DNA from: a virus
Taxonomy: Duplodnaviria > Heunggongvirae > Uroviricota > Caudoviricetes
IMG/VR virus record: IMGVR_UViG_2711768006_000005
Length of the DNA: 8,806 bases
Direction: 5' to 3' (one strand)
Positions 1-8,806 of the stretch are shown here, piece after piece. The notes below the pieces were generated by a model. That model saw nothing but the letters and a program-made list of their open reading frames with translations. It had not been told where the DNA came from and made no database searches. Both the position numbers and the translations under genes were made by a program. The stretch's first letter is position 1, and each line of letters starts with the position of its first letter.

Positions 1-83
1 AGGGACAGCTGATAGAAACAGAAGCCACTGGAGCACCTCAAAAACACCATCATACACTAAATCAGTAAGTTGGCAGCATCACC
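1..83 (-). mobile_element. IS1: IS1 terminal segment (outer ~83 bp including the left inverted repeat); body of the element lies beyond the left edge of the window
   Basis: Reverse complement of 1-83 reads GGTGATGCTGCCAACTTACTGATTTAGTGTATGATGGTGTTTTTGAGGTGCTCCAGTGGCTTCTGTTTCTATCAGCTGTCCCT, which I recognise from memory as the IS1 left end (IRL GGTGATGCTGCCAACTTACTGAT). Terminus at position 83, 15 bp from the stop of the adjacent head gene. Confidence 0.85.
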
Positions 84-98
84 TCATTCGTCTGTTCC

Positions 99-605
99 TT
101 AAATCTTCCAGGAAATTTCTGCATTGCCGTCAGCATCACCGGCACCTGTGAATTCAGCGTTGGTCAGCACCACGTTTTTGCCACTGACTGACGTGGACAT
201 GAATCCACCCAGCGGCACTTTGATGGATTCATCAGTGGAGACGACAACGTATACCGGATCGCCTTTTTTGATAGTGCTGGCATCAAAATCAGAACCGAGA
301 TTAACGGTCACGTAGCCACGCTTCATGGCGTCGCCCGGGAAGTTCTTGCCTGTTCCCACCTGGCGAACCATGTCCGGCTGCGACGTGGTCGGATAAGGGC
401 GCACGTAGATCCCCTTCACCTTGTCTGCGGTATCACCATCTGCCAGCGGCACGAAAAAACCGTCATCATCGTATTTACCAGCCAGGCCATAGGCAGCGAA
501 GGCGTTATCGGATTTAAGGACCACCGGTTCGACGGTTAAGTCCTGCGGGCGAGAGACAGCCCCGGCAATGCCAACAGGCATCCGGTACAGAAATACATTA
601 TTCAT
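99..605 (-). CDS. Small phage head-associated structural protein (168 aa), possibly decoration/cement-like; function not established
   Basis: Intact 168-aa ORF with ATG at 603-605, only 3 nt after the stop of the upstream gene (609-611), consistent with translational coupling in a head operon. Position immediately after a scaffold-like gene. No motif I can name with certainty. Confidence 0.65.
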   Translation of the reverse strand: MNNVFLYRMPVGIAGAVSRPQDLTVEPVVLKSDNAFAAYGLAGKYDDDGFFVPLADGDTADKVKGIYVRPYPTTSQPDMVRQVGTGKNFPGDAMKRGYVTVNLGSDFDASTIKKGDPVYVVVSTDESIKVPLGGFMSTSVSGKNVVLTNAEFTGAGDADGNAEISWKI

Positions 606-608
606 TTT

Positions 609-1829
609 TTACCCTTTACGGTTTGCCCAGAATTCAGCGTTTTGTTTGTTCAGGGAAGCGATACTGGTCATGCCCATGTTTAGGCGCTGTGCATCGCCGG
701 TGGTGGCGCGGGTGTTTCGCCCTTTGGCAACCTCAGACACGGCATTAAACGCCATGTCGACCGATTGTTTCGGTAATTTGCGGATATCCGCATCACCGAC
801 TATCTGGCGAACCAGCGTTTTGTCAGCAGAAGCCAGAACCTCGCGTTTGAACGCGGTCGGTTTCATCTTACGGCTCAGATCGATACCCGGAACGATAACT
901 TCGGCACGCCAGGCTGAGTCACCAGTAATCGTGGTTTCCTCTTCATCGTCCTCGCCGTCACCGGTCGGATTATCGTCAGGCTTATTATCGTTATCGCCCG
1001 TGGCATTTCTTTCCAGCTTAGCCAGCAGGGCTTTCAGTAATGTTTTGAGGTCATCATCACTGTCGCCGGTTGGATCTCCGCCCATCTCTGGTGCTTTGTC
1101 CGGTAGTGGTTGCTGCGGGGACAGGTTGATGTTGAGATTAACGCCCTGCGGCAAATCCCCCTCATCTCCTGTAACCGATGCGGGAGCCGACTCCACCAGT
1201 TCGTTCATGGTGTCGGCATCTCCTGTCTTGATGGCCGCACGCATGCGGTTCCACCAGTTTTTCTTTTGATTTGCCATTGTGTCTCTGTCTCCAATTGCAC
1301 AACGATTTCCGGCTCTGCCTTTAGGGACAAGAGCCACATGGTTTCCGGTAATATCGACCTGCTCGGCTTTACCTGGCTCGGTCTGCTCGTACTCCGCGTC
1401 ATAGCCGCACGACACTTCGCGCAGGCCATCTTCGATAAGCTGAATGGCGCTTTCGTCTTTGACGATAAGGTCAGCCAGCATCAAATCAGACTGCTCACCC
1501 GTCCCGCGCCGGACATTCTGGAGGTGCCCGACAGCAAGCTCTTTCCAGTTCTCGGGATTTACCAGCCGCACATTCCCGTTTTCATCTTCAGGATGCAGGA
1601 TCGTGATGCTCATCCCTTCGAATGAGGCAAGCGTGGCCGGATGGAATACCTGCTCAGGAGAACGCGTGACGACTATTTCACCGAACTTATCGGGTTTCAG
1701 TTTTGGCAGGTCATCAGCACCATAGAGCTGCTTACCTGTTCGTCCTATCGGCACGTCTTTGCACAGCAACGAGCCGTCAGCCAGGCGGTATCGGGTTTCC
1801 CCGAGCCTGGTCTCAAAAAAGTATTTCAT
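609..1829 (-). CDS. Phage head morphogenesis / scaffold-like protein (406 aa), DUF2213-like by recollection
   Basis: Intact ORF. ATG 1827-1829 lies 3 nt after the stop of the MuF-like gene (1833-1835). Central acidic low-complexity tract (e.g. DSDDDLKTLLKALLAKLERNATGDNDNKPDDNPTGDGEDDEEETT) typical of scaffolding proteins. Sits between MuF-like and small head protein genes. Confidence 0.6.
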   Translation of the reverse strand: MKYFFETRLGETRYRLADGSLLCKDVPIGRTGKQLYGADDLPKLKPDKFGEIVVTRSPEQVFHPATLASFEGMSITILHPEDENGNVRLVNPENWKELAVGHLQNVRRGTGEQSDLMLADLIVKDESAIQLIEDGLREVSCGYDAEYEQTEPGKAEQVDITGNHVALVPKGRAGNRCAIGDRDTMANQKKNWWNRMRAAIKTGDADTMNELVESAPASVTGDEGDLPQGVNLNINLSPQQPLPDKAPEMGGDPTGDSDDDLKTLLKALLAKLERNATGDNDNKPDDNPTGDGEDDEEETTITGDSAWRAEVIVPGIDLSRKMKPTAFKREVLASADKTLVRQIVGDADIRKLPKQSVDMAFNAVSEVAKGRNTRATTGDAQRLNMGMTSIASLNKQNAEFWANRKG

Positions 1830-1832
1830 GGG

Positions 1833-2615
1833 TTATGCTGCCCTTTTCATTGCGAATGGAACGCGAACAAACACGATCTCTTTATAGCAGCGGCAGTTTG
1901 GCAGCTCGCCCGCGTGGCCGGTCATGCCGTCCAAAGTTGGAGGTGAATCCCAGCGGACGAATTTACCTTTCATGTGATCGTGGGAATCTCGGACATCGCC
2001 ATCATCGGCTGTACGCCAAATATAACCATCCGAGCCAATAGCTATCGCTCGGGCCATATCCAGCGCGCCCGTTGCTCTTCCCAGTTCCGTTCGGGCAATC
2101 AGATCGGCCCTAGACTTAGCAACATCGCCGGTAGATGCAATCTCTTTAGCAAACTGCTCCGCCCGACCACCGGTGACAACAGCCTCTATCGCTTTGTTCT
2201 GGATGTCGTACACCCTGTCTGCGGCCTCGAGAGGCAGAGATTTGATGTACTTGACCTGTTCGGCGATGATGGATTGCATCACCTGGCCCACAGGAGCGCT
2301 TTCCACAAGATTGCGGAGCTCGCGACTGATGTTCTTGCTGTGTTGCCGCCAAACTTTCTCGTTCTGCCGGGTTAGGTCCGCAGTAAAGTTTTCCGCGACC
2401 TTTGTCGCCCAGGGGGTGATGATTTCACTGTAACGCTCCAGCGCCGCAATAATTTCCGTGATACTGTCATTTGAACCATCGTAGCGACCATTTACGATGT
2501 CTCCGACCGCCCTCGCTATCCTGCGTAGGCTGGTTCGATACCGGATTTCCGCCTGACGGCTCCTGCGGTTCGTCATCAGGTTCGCCGATGCCGGGCGGCG
2601 CTTCATCTTCGGCAT
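1833..2615 (-). CDS. Phage minor head protein, Mu F-like / SPP1 gp7 family (260 aa as given by the first ATG; true start uncertain)
   Basis: C-terminal region ...WRTADDGDVRDSHDHMKGKFVRWDSPPTLDGMTGHAGELPNCRCYKE resembles the conserved Mu F-like head-morphogenesis domain. Follows the portal gene as in Mu/SPP1-type head modules. The first ATG (2615) would overlap the portal 3' end by 149 nt, so the start may be an internal ATG (2606 or 2576) or a non-ATG codon. Confidence 0.75.
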   Translation of the reverse strand: MPKMKRRPASANLMTNRRSRQAEIRYRTSLRRIARAVGDIVNGRYDGSNDSITEIIAALERYSEIITPWATKVAENFTADLTRQNEKVWRQHSKNISRELRNLVESAPVGQVMQSIIAEQVKYIKSLPLEAADRVYDIQNKAIEAVVTGGRAEQFAKEIASTGDVAKSRADLIARTELGRATGALDMARAIAIGSDGYIWRTADDGDVRDSHDHMKGKFVRWDSPPTLDGMTGHAGELPNCRCYKEIVFVRVPFAMKRAA

Positions 2616-3933
2616 TCTCGATGTCCTCGTCGGTAATGGATGCCCCGATGCCGGTTACGTCAGAATTTTCTCGCAAATCAGTCATAGCGGCTTTCAGTGT
2701 CATCAGACCATCACCCAGCGCCGTACTGATTGCGTTGGTGGTGTTTAACGCCACCGTTGAGCGATCGACATCAGACATTTGCCAGAGCGGGTTAAACTCA
2801 AACGTGAAATCGTCCGGCAGCGGCTTGCCAAGTTCCGAACGATGCATGATGTCCAGTATCCGCCGCACCGGAAGACGTAAACGCCTCTCCTGCAACGAAC
2901 TGATGCGATCGTAATAGTTGGCAAGGTCTGCATCACCGGTAGAAAATCCTTTCGGGGACTGTCCGAACAACCGCACCAGTGGGATACCAACAGCGCCACT
3001 AATCTGTTCTACAAACTGCGAAAGGATGTCATCCAGACCACTGAAGCTGTACTGATGGGTTTCAAACTTATCCCGCGAGTCCATGAGCGTCATGCCTTCA
3101 TTACTCTGGAACTGTCGAATCAGGTCGATATTCTTCAGCAACGCTTCATACGCAGGACCACCAAGTGCGATAAGCTCGCGTAGCTTCTCCACGCTGTAGG
3201 TACGCAAATGCGCCTTGTAGACCAGCTGCGCCGCGCCGACAGTAGCGCTGTCGAACGCGGTAAGACGATCCCAGATACGCTCTACAACCGACATTCCCCA
3301 TTCGTTCTCGGTCATCTTCTGCTGAAATGGCAACGTGACGCCATCAAAGCGAATCAGGCGACTGTGATGAATGCGCCAGGCAGGAATTCCCGTTGCTGTG
3401 GTCACCACATCGTAAAACTCAGGTTTACCCAGGTCCGGCCCCATATCTTTAATGCGGCGGGTCAGTGCCGGGTCGACCATCCAGCGGTCGAGCGGGAGAA
3501 TCCCCTTAAACTTGCCCTTACCGATGGTTTCGGGTCGCAGCGGGGTCATTGGTGCCTACCCCTCAATCATGATGAAACCCACCGCGCCGCCGTAGAGGCG
3601 CGACCATTTCAGCACGTCATTCAGCGCATCCCAGATTTGCAACTCATCCAGTTGTGATTCGAGAATGCCACGATCTTTTGCATCAATTTCCGAAGTGATG
3701 CGAATGCCTTTGCGGGTCATATCATCCGGGATAGCATCGACTGCTTCGCCGATGATCTAGGATGAACGATAGGACCATTCCACCAGCATGCGGTTACGAC
3801 TGGTGAAATTAGCCCGGTAGGTGGATGCTGAGTGCTGGTTAGGTGTCTGCATCCCTACGCGGGCAATAAAATTCTCATAACCATCAGCTGTGGCCTGCAC
3901 AGTTCGCCGCAGGGCTTGTTTGTTTCGTGCCAT
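2467..3933 (-). pseudogene. Phage portal protein gene interrupted by two in-frame TAG (amber) codons (minus-strand codons at 3757-3759 and 3556-3558)
   Basis: ATG at 3931-3933 overlaps the terminase stop (ATGA). I translated by hand: MARNKQALRRTVQATADGYENFIARVGMQTPNQHSASTYRANFTSRNRMLVEWSYRSS-TAG-IIGEAVDAIPDDMTRKGIRITSEIDAKDRGILESQLDELQIWDALNDVLKWSRLYGGAVGFIMIEG-TAG-APMTPLRPETIGKGKF..., continuing in the same frame as the 360-aa ORF 2467-3549. Total about 488 codons, the size and position expected for a portal directly after terminase large subunit. No frameshift is needed to join the three segments. Confidence 0.75.
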
Positions 3934-5336
3934 CAGGCCTGTCTCCCCAGCTGTTCCCAGATATCCAGCGATGTATCGATTGGCGCGAAGGCCATAATGA
4001 ATGCATCAGCAACGTTTGGTGACGGTATCTCGCGTTTTGCGAGGTCTTTTTTACTTTCGACCATCACACGTCCGTTACGGTCGAAATCACGATGAGGTGT
4101 TGTCAGTTCCAGTTTCAGCTTTTCAAGCAACGGACAACGAGAATCTATGCTGATCAGCTCATCCACAGGATACTGTTCTCCGTTGTTAATGGCGTTAAAC
4201 GTATTTCTGAAACGGTCAGCCACCAGCCACCATGCCTGAGCCTTAAGATTTGCGAAAAAGTCTTTGTTGGGGATGCCGTTGTACTCGTCATCTGGCTCAT
4301 GCACACCAGCACCGGCGTTAAACCTCTGGTAATTCACACGTCGCGCGTATGCGTTCTCGCTCTTCCGGTCAGCGTTAATTTCAGAGAATTTAGCACCGGC
4401 AGACGCACCAACACCGATAGAGTCGTAAACAATATCTGCTTCACGCTCCAGCGCCGCCTGATAAGTACGCTGGCAGCTCTTCAGTAATTCATCTTCTTTG
4501 GCCTTCCATTCGTCGGCCCAGAAAACAACGGATCCGTGACGGTAAACGTTAGCGCACTTATCTGTACCACTGTCAGCCACGTCAAAGCCAATACGCTTTC
4601 TTCCACTGGGTTCGAAATTTAACGTTTTGTGCGCATCCACTGCGGCTTCTATCCAAGACAGTTTGATGATTGCCGCATCATCATCAGACTCCGGAACGCC
4701 CTCATACACATGTTTAAAACCATCCGGATCACGGCGTCGCGCCGCGTCGATAACCTTAAGCATGGTGTCAGACAGAAACGGATTTTCGTCATAGTTAATT
4801 TTGCGGATGAGAGTGCCTTCGGGCGGATCAACAACGAAGTTGCGCCAGACGAAATCAGTAACAAGTCCGGGGTTGAATATGAACCAGCATTCCGAACCCT
4901 CTTTACGGATCGTTGGCTCCAGAATTTTCCACTGGTATTCCGTCAGTGCGTGGGCTTCTTCCAGCCACAACACATCGATCCCCTCCAGTGACTTAATTTC
5001 TTCGATGTTGCGCCATAATCCATAAAAAACAAATTCCGAGCCAGTAACCCGGTTAATGATTTTGTTGTTCAGAATACGGAAACGGTGCCGCAGACCAAAC
5101 CTGTCTATCTGAATTTTGAGCAGGGTATACACCGACTCTTCGATTTTATTCTGGATCTGACGGGCACAACAAAAACGCAGGGTGTATTTATTCGACAGAA
5201 ATATGGCAATGCCAGCGGCATCCCATGATTTTGACGATGACCGACCACCATAAAGCACTTTGTTACGTGCCCGCATAGTCCAGAAACTACGTAAAGCCGG
5301 ATTCAGCGTCGGTTTGGATGTCAGAGTAGAAGTCAT
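3933..5336 (-). CDS. terL: Terminase large subunit, PBSX/Sf6-like family (about 467 aa from ATG 5334-5336)
   Basis: N-terminal P-loop-like YGGRSSSKSW, Walker B-like IDVLWLEEA, and a C-terminal half of nuclease-domain size. The ORF is open back to 5444, but the ATG at 5336 gives MTSTLTSKPTLNP... and about 28 residues before the P-loop, which I judge more typical. This start overlaps the small-subunit gene by about 50 nt. Stop TGA 3933-3935 overlaps the portal ATG. Confidence 0.85.
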   Translation of the reverse strand: MTSTLTSKPTLNPALRSFWTMRARNKVLYGGRSSSKSWDAAGIAIFLSNKYTLRFCCARQIQNKIEESVYTLLKIQIDRFGLRHRFRILNNKIINRVTGSEFVFYGLWRNIEEIKSLEGIDVLWLEEAHALTEYQWKILEPTIRKEGSECWFIFNPGLVTDFVWRNFVVDPPEGTLIRKINYDENPFLSDTMLKVIDAARRRDPDGFKHVYEGVPESDDDAAIIKLSWIEAAVDAHKTLNFEPSGRKRIGFDVADSGTDKCANVYRHGSVVFWADEWKAKEDELLKSCQRTYQAALEREADIVYDSIGVGASAGAKFSEINADRKSENAYARRVNYQRFNAGAGVHEPDDEYNGIPNKDFFANLKAQAWWLVADRFRNTFNAINNGEQYPVDELISIDSRCPLLEKLKLELTTPHRDFDRNGRVMVESKKDLAKREIPSPNVADAFIMAFAPIDTSLDIWEQLGRQA

Positions 5337-6051
5337 TGAGGTCACGCTCTCCATTGCCATCATCAATACCTGCATCACGGCGAAGACGATCAGCCTCCAG
5401 AGACACCTTATCAGTGGCGGCCTTGCGGTAGGCTGTATCAGCAAATATTTTTCCTACCGTCGCAAGCGTGCCAACGATGGACTCAATACGAACTGTATTG
5501 CGCATCATTGCTTTCTCGGCGGCGCTGATATTTTCAATCAGCATCTTCCTTTCCTGGTCCCCATTAGCATCTTCCAGCGACACCAACCACCGACCAATAT
5601 TCTCTGCAGCGACAAGGTTGTTAGCACGAAGGCGAAATAATTCGTCCTCGAGCGTCAACGCTTTAGCGTCCTCTATCACCTCATCTTTGAGCAGAAGGCG
5701 ACGGGCATAACCACCGTGTTTTAATGCCTGCTGGTTACCGGGTTGGAATGGGTTAGTCGGGGGATCGGTACGCATTCCGCGTATCGGTTTCGTATCCGGT
5801 GTAGATTCTGTTTTTAGTTGCGTACTTTTTTGTGTAAGGCCAGTAATGGCAGGCTTTCTGCTGGTACGCACTTTCCTTTTTTGCGTACCATTTTTGCAAA
5901 CCTGCGTACCGCCACTGCGTGCCCAACCAAGCTTTTTGGCCCTCTTCCTGATAGCCCCTTCTGTAACGCCGTATTTCTCGCCTATATCACGGAGGCTAAG
6001 GACTCCGGCCCGGTATGCCGATTCGATGGCCTCCCAGTCCGGTTTTGCCAT
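5287..6051 (-). CDS. terS: Terminase small subunit (254 aa) with N-terminal helix-turn-helix DNA-binding region
   Basis: Intact ORF immediately upstream of, and overlapping, the large terminase gene. N-terminal AIESAYRAGVLSLRDIGEKYGVTEGAIRKRAKKLGW looks like an HTH. GGAAG Shine-Dalgarno-like sequence 8 nt upstream of ATG 6049-6051. Stop is TAG. Confidence 0.7.
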   Translation of the reverse strand: MAKPDWEAIESAYRAGVLSLRDIGEKYGVTEGAIRKRAKKLGWARSGGTQVCKNGTQKRKVRTSRKPAITGLTQKSTQLKTESTPDTKPIRGMRTDPPTNPFQPGNQQALKHGGYARRLLLKDEVIEDAKALTLEDELFRLRANNLVAAENIGRWLVSLEDANGDQERKMLIENISAAEKAMMRNTVRIESIVGTLATVGKIFADTAYRKAATDKVSLEADRLRRDAGIDDGNGERDLNDFYSDIQTDAESGFT

Positions 6052-6165
6052 GATTATGCTTCCTGTGATTTACTGTTATCGCTGCCTGTCACAATAGGTT
6101 GCTTTAATTCTTCCTCATCACTCACTCCTGCGACGCTCCGTGGCAGGGCCCCCCACAGGAGTACC

Positions 6166-6195
6166 TTGTAAATGTAAGGTGTTTAAGCCTAAATT
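6166..6195 (+). promoter_or_regulatory. Candidate sigma70-type promoter for the plus-strand DedA-like gene (TTGTAA - 18 nt - TAAATT)
   Basis: TTGTAA at 6166-6171 and TAAATT at 6190-6195 with an 18-nt spacer, about 50 nt upstream of the ATG at 6249, in an AT-rich divergent intergenic region. Hexamer match only; no experimental support. Confidence 0.25.
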
Positions 6196-6248
6196 AAGTC
6201 GTATCACGGTTAAATAGCAAAGAAAAATTCACAGAAGGAAAGACATTG

Positions 6249-6758
6249 ATGGAGTGGATAAATGCTTTGATGAACTATTTTGTACTTCATCCATATCGCC
6301 TATGGGGGCTTCTTTTTATAATAGCGTTCACAAAATCCACTTTACTCATTTCGGCGATATTGCCACCAGCATCAATTATGATGGCCACTGTAATTACAGT
6401 CAGCAAGACGACTCTTTCACCATGGGAAGCTGGAATCACGGTCATGAGTGGCGCATGGTGCGGTACTATCGTTAATTACCATCTTGGTATAATAATTGGG
6501 CATATCCCTCAACTTGCATGTATAATATCAAGCCGTTCCAATACAATAGAACGGGTTCGCCTTCAGTTGCAAAATAACTCTGTGTCAATACTTTTCACTT
6601 CGCGCTTTATCGCCGTGCTGCGTTATATTGCTCCTTTGGTGGCAGGAATGTTGCAACTTCATCCAGTGAAAGTGTATACAGTGAGTCTGATTTCAGCTGC
6701 TAGCTGGTCAGCACTTTATGTTGGTAGTTTTAGCTTCGTGTTGCCTTTTTTTAGCTAA
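6249..6758 (+). CDS. DedA-family (SNARE-associated, PF09335-like) small inner-membrane protein, 169 aa, carried as an AT-rich moron
   Basis: Only convincing plus-strand gene. ATG 6249 is preceded by AAGGAA 6 nt upstream; the ORF track's 6246 start is a TTG three nt earlier. Mostly hydrophobic with several predicted TM segments. Contains DedA-like motifs GTIVNYHLGIIIG and SRFIAVLRYIAPLVAG (two Arg six residues apart followed by P..AG). Visibly lower GC than the flanking phage genes. Confidence 0.65.
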   Translation: MEWINALMNYFVLHPYRLWGLLFIIAFTKSTLLISAILPPASIMMATVITVSKTTLSPWEAGITVMSGAWCGTIVNYHLGIIIGHIPQLACIISSRSNTIERVRLQLQNNSVSILFTSRFIAVLRYIAPLVAGMLQLHPVKVYTVSLISAASWSALYVGSFSFVLPFFS

Positions 6759-6846
6759 ACTGCCCATAAAAAGCTCTTGCGAATCCAGCTTCCCCCATTC
6801 CTCTGACAACAGAATCTGATTTGAAGGATAATGAGTAAAATTACCG

Positions 6847-7317
6847 CTACCCCCCAAGGCATTGGATCCTGATGTACTCCTGAAGCATTCTCAATGCTGT
6901 CTGGTCGCTGATGATTCCGTCCCGGATACCGAGAACGTTTCGTCCAGCAACTGGAGAGAGTTCGACGGTGGCATCATTGCCCATGCCGGAGGCGCTGGAG
7001 GTTTCGGCTGAGGATGGCACAGAGCATTTTCCTTTGACGAGCACCCGACCACCATTATCAAGCTTGCGCCGAAGAGCATCATTTTCAGCTTTCGCATCAG
7101 CTAACTCCTTCGTGTATTTAGCATCGAGTGCATCAGCAGCACGCTGGCGCTGCTGCATGTCAGTAATGGTTGCGTTCGCCAGCTTCAGTTCTCTTGCGTT
7201 TTTGTCGCGCTGCTCTTTGTAGGTAATGGCGTTATCACGGTAATGATTAACAGCCCATGACAGGCGGACGATGATGCAGATAACCAGAGCGGAGATAATC
7301 GCGGTGACTCTGCTCAT
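6847..7317 (-). CDS. Rz: Rz-type inner-membrane spanin (i-spanin), copy 2, with a divergent C-terminal half
   Basis: From ATG 7315-7317, which overlaps the stop of the R remnant (ATGA): [59 protein letters not shown]... The N-terminal ~85 aa is nearly identical to copy 1 and lambda Rz; the C-terminal half is unrelated to copy 1. The ORF track shows a 12-nt longer ORF (7329). Stop is TAG. Confidence 0.8.
6891..7097 (-). CDS. Rz1: Rz1-type outer-membrane lipoprotein spanin (o-spanin), copy 2, embedded in Rz copy 2 in another frame
   Basis: 68-aa ORF wholly inside Rz copy 2 in a different frame. [23 protein letters not shown] has a signal peptide and lipobox (VVGC), followed by a proline-rich stretch [11 protein letters not shown]. 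Differs from copy 1 after the lipobox. Confidence 0.75.
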
Positions 7318-7405
7318 TGCTGCCCCCACAAACAGACTTCACGCTCAATCTCACGACGGGTCATCAGCCCTTTCCATTGCTTACCGCCAGCATATGTCCA
7401 GCGAC
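7314..7405 (-). pseudogene. 3' remnant of a second R-type endolysin gene (last ~30 codons), abutting the N run
   Basis: 7318-7405 is near-identical to 8205-8305 (the 3' end of R copy 1) and encodes ...[29 protein letters not shown]-stop. The few differences are synonymous (e.g. GGG vs GGT, CAG vs CAA). The 5' part is either missing or hidden in the N run. Confidence 0.7.
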
Positions 7406-7655
7406 NNNNNNNNNNNNNNNNNNNNNNNNNNNNNNNNNNNNNNNNNNNNNNNNNNNNNNNNNNNNNNNNNNNNNNNNNNNNNNNNNNNNNNNNNNNNNNN
7501 NNNNNNNNNNNNNNNNNNNNNNNNNNNNNNNNNNNNNNNNNNNNNNNNNNNNNNNNNNNNNNNNNNNNNNNNNNNNNNNNNNNNNNNNNNNNNNNNNNNN
7601 NNNNNNNNNNNNNNNNNNNNNNNNNNNNNNNNNNNNNNNNNNNNNNNNNNNNNNN
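7406..7655. other. Run of 250 N: unresolved or masked sequence
   Basis: Directly visible. Flanked by the repeated R/Rz sequence on the left and by the start of an unknown minus-strand ORF on the right. Confidence 1.
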
Positions 7656-7697
7656 ACATCCACGCTTACGGCAGGCACGTGGGATTAGTGATGGCAT
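7656..7697 (-). CDS. 5' end of an unknown ORF downstream of Rz copy 1 (first 14 codons, MPSLIPRACRKRGC...), continuing into the N run
   Basis: ATG at 7695-7697 preceded by GAGG 6 nt upstream. Same strand as, and 40 nt downstream of, the Rz stop. The rest is hidden by N, so length and identity are unknown. Confidence 0.3.
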
Positions 7698-7739
7698 AAA
7701 TACCTCATACCCTGCGAAATGTTTACCACGATAAAAAGG

Positions 7740-8204
7740 CTACTTAATGCACTGAGTGCGGATATACTCCTGTGCCCCTTCCAGTTGCATCTGCATCGTC
7801 ATCAGCCGCTCTCTGAGGGTGAAATAATCCCGTTCAGCGGTGTCTGCCAGTCGGGGGCTGGTTGCATTATCCACGCCGGAGGCGGTGGTGGCTTCACGCA
7901 CTGACTGACAGACTGCTTTGATGTGCAACCGACGACGACCAGCGGCAACATCAGCGCGCAGAGTTTCATTTTCAGCTTTCGCATCAGCTAACTCCTTCGT
8001 GTATTTAGCATCGAGTGCATTAACATCACGCTGTCTCTGCTGCATGTCAGTAATGGTTGCGTTCGCCAGCTTCAGTTCTCTTGCGTTTTTGTCGCGCTGC
8101 TCTTTGTAGGTAATGGCGTTATCACGGTAATGATTAACAGCCCACGACAAGCAGACGATGATGCCGATAACCAGAGCGGAGATAATCGCGGTTACCCTGC
8201 TCAT
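7740..8204 (-). CDS. Rz: Rz inner-membrane spanin (i-spanin), copy 1, lambda-like
   Basis: [134 protein letters not shown]... closely matches lambda Rz as I recall it. ATG 8202-8204 overlaps the R stop (ATGA). Stop is TAG. Confidence 0.9.
7802..7984 (-). CDS. Rz1: Rz1 outer-membrane lipoprotein spanin (o-spanin), copy 1, embedded in Rz in another frame
   Basis: 60 aa, [60 protein letters not shown]: signal peptide, lipobox VVGC, proline-rich segment. Near-identical to lambda Rz1 as I recall it. Confidence 0.85.
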
Positions 8205-8698
8205 TGTTGACCCCACAAACAGACTTCACGCTCAATCTCACGACGGGTCATCAGCCCTTTCCATTGCTTACCGCCAGCATATGTCCAGCGACATAGCTGG
8301 TCACATGCGCCTTTGATATAGCCCTGGTTTATTTTGCGAAGAAGCGTCGATGTTCTGAAATTGCCAGCGCCCACGTTGTAAACGAACGAGTAAAGAGCGC
8401 CGCGCGTTGTTTCCGGTATATCGACTTTGATGTACGGGTTAATTTGTCTGGCGACAGTGGCAAGGTCTTTATTCAGGAGAGCTTTGCATTCTGCTTCGGT
8501 ATACGTTTTACCAGGCATGATGTCTTTTCCGGTGTGTCCGTGACATACAGTCCATACACCAATGATATCTTTGTATAGTATGTAGCTGACACCTTCCAGA
8601 CCATCGTTACCACCTGGGCCAGTGATTAACACAGATGCTATAGCAACAGCCCCGCCACCAATAGCAACTGCAACAGCCTTGCGTAATGATGGCGACAT
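8201..8698 (-). CDS. R: SAR endolysin (phage-21 R-type lysozyme, T4-lysozyme-like fold), 165 aa
   Basis: N-terminal Gly/Ala-rich weakly hydrophobic segment [20 protein letters not shown] typical of a signal-arrest-release domain. Catalytic E-x8-D-x5-T present in [18 protein letters not shown]. Overall close to P21 R / DLP12 RrrD-type lysozymes as I recall them. GAGAGG Shine-Dalgarno-like sequence upstream of ATG 8696-8698. Confidence 0.9.
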
Positions 8699-8720
8699 TA
8701 TTCACCTCTCGCAGCCTTAC
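8699..8720 (-). pseudogene. 3' remnant (last ~7 codons, ...KAARGE-stop) of a phage-21-type pinholin (S21-like) gene, truncated by IS2
   Basis: Minus strand reads GTAAGGCTGCGAGAGGTGAATAATG: ...K A A R G E then TAA overlapping the R start (TAATG). I recall the S21 pinholin ending ...RRKAARGE. Everything upstream is IS2 sequence. Confidence 0.55.
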
Positions 8721-8806
8721 TAGACTGGCCCCCTGAATCTCCAGACAACCAGTATCACTTAAATAAGTGATAGTCTTAATACTAGTTTTTAGACTAGTCA
8801 TTGGAG
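8721..8806 (+). mobile_element. IS2: IS2 left end (IRL and transposase-promoter region); element continues beyond the right edge of the window
   Basis: 8721-8806 TAGACTGGCCCCCTGAATCTCCAGACAACCAGTATCACTTAAATAAGTGATAGTCTTAATACTAGTTTTTAGACTAGTCATTGGAG matches my recollection of the IS2 left terminus, including the internal palindrome TATCACTTA-AA-TAAGTGATA (8753-8772). Confidence 0.8.

Follow-up and report, generated by a model that had tools for sequence, protein, structure and literature searches.

An IS2 element sits in the holin gene (S) of a decayed lambdoid prophage of Shigella sonnei, and the analysis leads us to regard it as very probable that the endolysin and spanin genes R-Rz-Rz1 beyond it have been orphaned by this insertion and are drifting neutrally. 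The window, by which we mean the whole stretch of 8,806 nucleotides that was analysed, is the entire draft scaffold CWVL01000165.1 of S. sonnei assembly GCA_001252095.1. Ten long S. sonnei assemblies match it at 99.97% identity over positions 1-7405 and at 100% over positions 8211-8806. The features to which the following sections refer are:

1-83, minus strand: IS1 end at the opposite end of the scaffold, truncating the prophage after its head 'cement' gene (alignment to 17811-17729 of S. sonnei locus L002)
6847-7317, minus strand: Rz i-spanin, 156 aa, with the embedded Rz1 o-spanin at 6891-7097 (PF03245, 103.6 bits; PF06085, 75 bits)
7314-7405, minus strand: the R 3' end that is truly linked to the downstream genes (continuity in S. 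sonnei complete genomes)
7406-7655, no strand: 250 consecutive N, most likely a gap in the scaffold, beginning at the equivalent of 8293, which is the R136C SNP
7656-8210, minus strand: foreign segment of HK97-like prophage type, with the 5'-terminal 42 nt of a gene for an HNH endonuclease (7697-7656), Rz and Rz1
7740-8204, minus strand: second Rz i-spanin, 154 aa, with an embedded Rz1 o-spanin at 7802-7984 (PF03245, PF06085)
8201-8698, minus strand: R, SAR endolysin, GH24 lysozyme, 165 aa, with an intact ORF (PDB 3HDE/4ZPU, PF00959)
8698-8720, minus strand: 3' remnant of a phage-21-type class II (pinholin-like) holin gene, K66-A-A-R-G-E71 and stop, carrying the GAGG ribosome-binding site (RBS) of R
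8716-8720, no strand: one copy of the target-site duplication, CTTAC on the window strand and GTAAG on the R-sense strand
8721-8806, plus strand: IS2 left end, comprising the 42-bp IRL and the leader to just before orfA (IS2A alignment)

IS2 in the last codons of the holin gene

The original prediction had assigned 8721-8806 to IS2, and alignment to the annotated IS2A of E. coli K-12 MG1655 bears this out, with 85 of 86 positions identical to its nucleotides 1-86 and the sole difference at 8752. From 8721 onward the sequence begins 5'-TAGACTGG, the IRL end of IS2 as described in PMC3299598, and the pattern by which an IS2 IRL is recognised (5'-TAGACTGG...TTAA, 42 bp) is present in the segment. 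A base-by-base check found the same IS2-holin junction in nine of the ten long S. sonnei assemblies, which shows that it is neither a chance resemblance nor a chimera. In these nine the junction leads into a full IS2 of 1,330-1,331 bp, 99.2-99.7% identical to IS2A (1320-1327 of 1331 positions), whose ORFs encode HTH_Tnp_1 (orfA) and rve (orfB) domains. Gene maps place the transposase genes on the strand opposite to R, in agreement with the earlier statement that they read away from the lysis genes. The pentanucleotide CTTAC flanks both ends of the element in nine S. sonnei loci (L002-L008, L010 and L011), and the 5-bp duplication that had been proposed as a check at the far end of IS2 is hence present. 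A 64-codon ORF on the minus strand (8607-8801) starts within the IS2 IRL and crosses the junction in a frame different from that of R; it is most likely spurious.

On the other side of the junction, 22 nt (8699-8720) separate IS2 from the start codon of R, and the TAA of the holin shares one base with the ATG of R. Translation of the minus strand of 8698-8721 gives S-K-A-A-R-G-E-stop, confirming to the base the approximately 22 bp encoding ...KAARGE-stop that had been noted earlier. Over its 23 nt, the remnant at 8698-8720 agrees exactly with the 3' end of the intact 71-aa holin gene of E. coli FDAARGOS_944 (L001 11728-11750), and the alignment of the window to this locus terminates exactly at 8720. 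The prophage of FDAARGOS_944 is the same one, at 99.8% identity, and its 71-aa holin, MYQMEK...IREDKRKAARGE, is uninterrupted; it thereby provides the intact P21-like S-R junction with which a comparison had been suggested: it is identical over 8698-8720 and continues without interruption. This intact holin scores 121.4 bits on PF04971 ('Bacteriophage P21 holin S', cut-off 26) and the IS2-fused S. sonnei allele 118 bits on the same family, so that the identification of the interrupted gene as a phage-21-type, pinholin-like gene stands; NCBIfam assigned the holin to no family. Its translation shows Met1 and Met4, a putative dual start, and two hydrophobic stretches that may be transmembrane segments, and the comparison with S21 itself is based on Pfam PF04971 and the S21 sequence.

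The claim that did not survive is that IS2 had replaced the holin gene and the late promoter. Holin codons 1-66 are intact directly beyond IRR in nine long S. sonnei assemblies, that of 53G (L007) among them. Because these codons lie on the far side of the element and the 5 bp are duplicated, the insertion took place without replacement: it is a simple transposition with target duplication, and neither the holin nor the promoter was replaced. Nothing but IS2 is seen upstream of the remnant in the window because the scaffold stops inside the repeat, and the lesson is that a contig stopping inside an IS cannot tell a 'replaced' neighbouring gene from an 'interrupted' one. The S. sonnei ORF beyond IS2 consists of holin residues 1-66 followed by 28 IS2-encoded residues, and this fusion already has a public annotation, 'lysis protein S [Shigella sonnei]'. 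The holin residues lost to IS2 are the last five, AARGE. In S21-68 the C-terminus can be truncated stepwise without loss of pore formation until K56 (bioRxiv 10.1101/2021.04.20.440580), a residue which corresponds to K59 of the holin studied here, 7 residues before the insertion point. As only AARGE is lost from a region that is dispensable in S21-68, the main damage is the uncoupling of the genes and not a loss of the membrane part of the holin. The locus is an example of an IS that removes only five holin residues and yet uncouples the endolysin-spanin unit from the holin.

The endolysin and its spanin partners

The R protein matches the phage 21 lysozyme (PDB 3HDE) and RrrD (4ZPU) over its full length with approximately 94% identity (E ~1e-104), and scores 149 bits on PF00959; in NCBIfam R and Rz gave matches below threshold only, and Rz1 no family. 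The R protein in exactly this form is listed as 'lysozyme [Shigella sonnei]' and occurs on 892 contigs. Its catalytic motif, E-x8-D-x5-T, is present as E35, D44 and T50, which match the corresponding residues of 3HDE and 4ZPU and do not vary among 100 homologues, and its Gly/Ala-rich residues 8-26 align without gaps to the SAR segment of R21, with conservative changes only. The earlier description of the SAR endolysin as intact is therefore right for the ORF, the E-D-T triad and the SAR segment, but it passes over three differences from the FDAARGOS_944 orthologue, P41L, D127Y and R136C, all non-synonymous with none synonymous beside them, and all specific to S. sonnei. Among 100 homologue cluster representatives of 75-94% identity, all have D at position 127; 95 have R at position 136, where C does not occur, and 97 have P or A at position 41. 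The aspartate at 127 recurs in two distant GH24 structures (9kbs and 9kbq, ~35-40% identity). The direction of these changes is judged from a single E. coli orthologue together with the conservation in the family. Judging from these positions, R is an open frame that cannot be called demonstrably intact, and it appears doubtful that the S. sonnei enzyme is active, or lytic on release. With no more than three substitutions relaxed selection cannot be proved, and retention or decay is only weakly informative here because S. sonnei is a recent clone.

The description of the lysis genes as a headless R-Rz-Rz1 cassette proved half right: the normal upstream context of R is lost, but the Rz/Rz1 pair at 7740-8204 is probably not the true neighbour of R. 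Both pairs in the window have the embedded architecture, with PF03245 and, in another frame, PF06085. In nine S. sonnei loci (L002-L008, L010 and L011) the gene order is R, Rz (156 aa) and a VTT/DedA gene, which suggests that the true downstream partners of R are probably the Rz/Rz1 at 6847-7317. In all ten long S. sonnei assemblies there is a single cassette, with 7405 continuous with the equivalent of 8293. Positions 7324-7405 duplicate 8211-8292 (82 bp). The foreign segment at 7656-8210 shares 99.1% identity with another prophage of E. coli FDAARGOS_944, one that has HNH after Rz; positions 7656-8144 are identical to this HK97-like prophage. Against the S. sonnei complete genomes the segment has 15 differing positions, all of them at or before 8210. 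The Rz product of 7740-8204 was found on no other contig in a collection of 153 billion genes, and the Rz1 of 7802-7984 has matches only in E. coli HK97-like prophages. The second R-Rz-Rz1 cassette thus looks most likely to be a scaffolding or misassembly artefact, and is most economically explained by a misjoin, in the de Bruijn graph or during scaffolding, at the 82-bp repeat common to the two prophage R genes. A real tandem R-Rz, as a strain-specific recombinant, was considered and is less likely in view of the single cassette in ten assemblies, the SNP-bounded gap and the unique Rz. More generally, scaffold gaps beside repeated prophage genes can yield false tandem cassettes.

Two further observations concern the surroundings of these genes. 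Positions 8145-8210, adjoining the switch point at 8210/8211, have seven substitutions in 66 bp that are absent from all X-type and Y-type prophage copies compared; a third prophage allele, a gap-filling error and a mosaic consensus are candidates for their origin. Between Rz and the small terminase gene, on the opposite strand, a gene at 6246-6758 (plus strand) encodes a 170-aa DedA/VTT-domain membrane protein; it is conserved in the orthologous E. coli prophage and looks like moron-type cargo.

Prophage decay and the distribution of the insertion

At its opposite end the scaffold stops in positions 1-83, which we take to be IS1 IRL sequence; the aligned stretch of L002 (17811-17729) is the start of a gene with IS1 InsA/DDE_Tnp_IS1 domains. 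In the complete genomes IS1 is followed by chromosomal genes for a lactonase and a LysR-type regulator, and the major capsid gene and all tail genes of the prophage are therefore gone. The R protein is found mostly on contigs of 5-10 kb (690 of 852 index blocks), which is the pattern expected of a fragment bounded by IS1 and IS2 in short-read assemblies. The portal gene (DUF1073/Phage_portal_3; 2467-3933, minus strand) has two nonsense mutations, W59* (3758) and Q126* (3558), relative to its intact FDAARGOS_944 orthologue. Over the whole remnant there are 12 non-synonymous or nonsense and 3 synonymous differences from the E. coli FDAARGOS_944 orthologue, a ratio that by our own estimate would be close to neutral drift.

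The region upstream of the holin has also been altered by transposition. In S. sonnei 53G the stretch from the first tRNA gene downstream of Q to the holin contains an IS3-family element (L007 6582-8449), and a deletion of 374 bp between Q and the holin has removed three of the four tRNA genes of the phage. In the majority of the other S. sonnei assemblies an IS110-family element is found some 7 bp before the holin ATG (6450-8440 in L002, L003 and L008), and in these assemblies the Q region is rearranged, being inverted or displaced.

The insertion occurs throughout the sequenced S. sonnei genomes examined. A 91-nt query across the IS2-holin junction gave no spanning match in 5,426 complete E. 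coli genomes, three of which have the same prophage region with an uninterrupted S-R junction and no IS2 at the site. The exact 37-nt junction had no match in genome_contigs, where S. sonnei is probably without a species representative of its own. Both prophage types of the scaffold are found at 99-99.8% identity in E. coli FDAARGOS_944 (L001 and L014) and FDAARGOS_943, the latter having IS2 in its large terminase gene instead; the sole other close match among the 5,426 genomes is strain VL40, with the X-type prophage only. The feature can already be found, with annotation, in public S. sonnei genomes, and represents IS damage of an ordinary kind and not a new system. It matters little beyond annotation, but serves as a clean marker, present across the clone, of prophage decay in S. 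sonnei.

Transcription of R and the competing explanations

Expression of R had been predicted to depend on transcription reading outward from IS2, and for this we find no support. PMC9330008, citing Jaurin and Normark 1983, places the outward -35 of IS2 and other IS3-family elements in IRR, and the weak native promoter of IS2, PIRL, is situated immediately inside IRL and directs transcription inward (PMC3299598). The end of IS2 that faces R is IRL, and the classic IS2 'turn-on' through the -35 in IRR is therefore not applicable. A consensus scan of the R-sense strand detected no sigma-70-like site of at least 9/12 anywhere in IS2. At the laxer threshold of 8/12 there were 4 matches on this strand against 3.0 +/- 1.9 expected, which is no better than chance; one of them, TTAAGA-17-GATACT, falls in IRL. 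The holin remnant retains an intact RBS of R (GAGG), from which any read-through RNA could be translated, and read-through across IS2 into R, whether Q-modified or other, is possible. As SAR endolysins are released spontaneously at a low rate and may lyse without a holin (PMC9239132), the idea of a latent toxic gene is mechanistically legitimate. In the present case it appears counter-indicated by the lack of a detectable promoter together with the change at an invariant residue of the enzyme.

The sequences show that a full IS2 entered S after codon 66 of 71, duplicating 5 bp of its target. One side of the element holds S(1-66) fused to 28 IS2-encoded residues, and the other K66 (re-created by the duplicated GTAAG) to E71, the RBS of R and R-Rz-Rz1. 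According to the explanation we favour for its consequence, 1.3 kb of untranslated antisense IS2 would part R-Rz-Rz1 from S and the Q-dependent late promoter, as would one or two further IS elements upstream. The genes would thus most likely be transcriptionally orphaned and subject to neutral drift like the rest of the remnant, and would not constitute a poised toxic gene; the presumed silence of R is deduced from the layout of the locus and the lack of promoter-like sequences. R, Rz and Rz1 are still open frames and the RBS of R is intact, observations that speak against decay.

The model with which the analysis began, a deletion in which IS2 took the place of the holin and the late promoter and left R as a latent toxic gene transcribed from IS2, now appears improbable. 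It accounts for the window as it stands, where only IS2 lies upstream of the 22-nt remnant and the ORF, RBS and catalytic triad of R are intact, and it could draw on the ability of SAR endolysins to lyse holin-free (PMC9239132). Its replacement part is refuted by the full IS2, the 5-bp duplication and holin codons 1-66 in the complete genomes, and its transcriptional part meets an IRL facing R, an outward -35 located in IRR, no promoter motif above chance and D127Y at an invariant position. We consider it slightly less probable still that R-Rz-Rz1 has been domesticated, with low-level expression, by read-through or from cryptic promoters, that serves the host, for instance in peptidoglycan turnover or the control of vesicles. 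The three open frames and the identity of R on 892 contigs would fit such a role, and the S-R-Rz/Rz1 genes of DLP12 in E. coli K-12 offer a precedent (PMC7918800), but identity within a young clone says little on selection, all three changes in R are non-synonymous and at conserved positions, and neighbouring genes have nonsense mutations; the DLP12 operon, moreover, is intact with its holin, whereas that of S. sonnei is split by IS2. There is a slim chance, a shade below that of domestication, that R-Rz-Rz1 is still transcribed, by read-through or from a cryptic start in IRL, and that the endolysin with Y127, C136 and L41 is active, which would make it a holin-uncoupled module; if so, it could be a stress-triggered autolysis or vesiculation device of the kind proposed for the DLP12 module, and the upstream S(1-66)-IS2 fusion might likewise be a functional pinholin variant. 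To an assembly chimera at the scaffold end we give almost no credence. The scaffold does contain another probable misjoin (7406-8292) and has repeats at both ends, but over 8211-8806 ten long S. sonnei assemblies, complete chromosomes included, match it at 100% identity, and nine of the ten have the junction, the complete IS2 and the duplication. An IS2 insertion into S that orphaned R-Rz-Rz1 hence remains by far the preferred explanation.

As an insertion, the element closely resembles the IS2A copy in yaiX of MG1655, which is likewise 1,331 bp long, with the same IRL and IRR termini, orfA and orfB, and a 5-bp duplication, and which similarly splits its host gene into two annotated fragments. 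The duplicated target is ATTAC in the case of IS2A and CTTAC in the holin, and unlike IS2A the element studied here has as its target the final codons of a prophage holin gene, with its IRL facing the downstream genes. With phage 21 the locus shares the organization of the cassette, namely an S stop overlapping the R start, an embedded spanin pair and a 71-aa holin with Met1 and Met4 that ends in ...KAARGE. It differs from phage 21 in the interruption of S after codon 66, in the P41L, D127Y and R136C changes of R, and in its host prophage, which is without capsid and tail genes and has a nonsense-mutated portal gene. The essD-rrrD-rzpD/rzoD genes of DLP12 are comparable in being a phage-21-type S-R-Rz/Rz1 cassette within a defective prophage, and their product RrrD (PDB 4ZPU) is the best structural match to S. 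sonnei R. The DLP12 module is intact and expressed, with a reported effect on vesiculation (PMC7918800); its operon is uninterrupted, whereas S. sonnei R-Rz-Rz1 is uncoupled from S by IS2 and nothing suggests its domestication. The IS-driven erosion of Shigella genomes is well described (PMC8072062), and the locus, with IS1, IS2, IS3-family and IS110-family elements within about 12 kb and deletions and inversions that vary among S. sonnei lineages, is one instance of this general IS-driven pseudogenisation, from which it differs in nothing essential.
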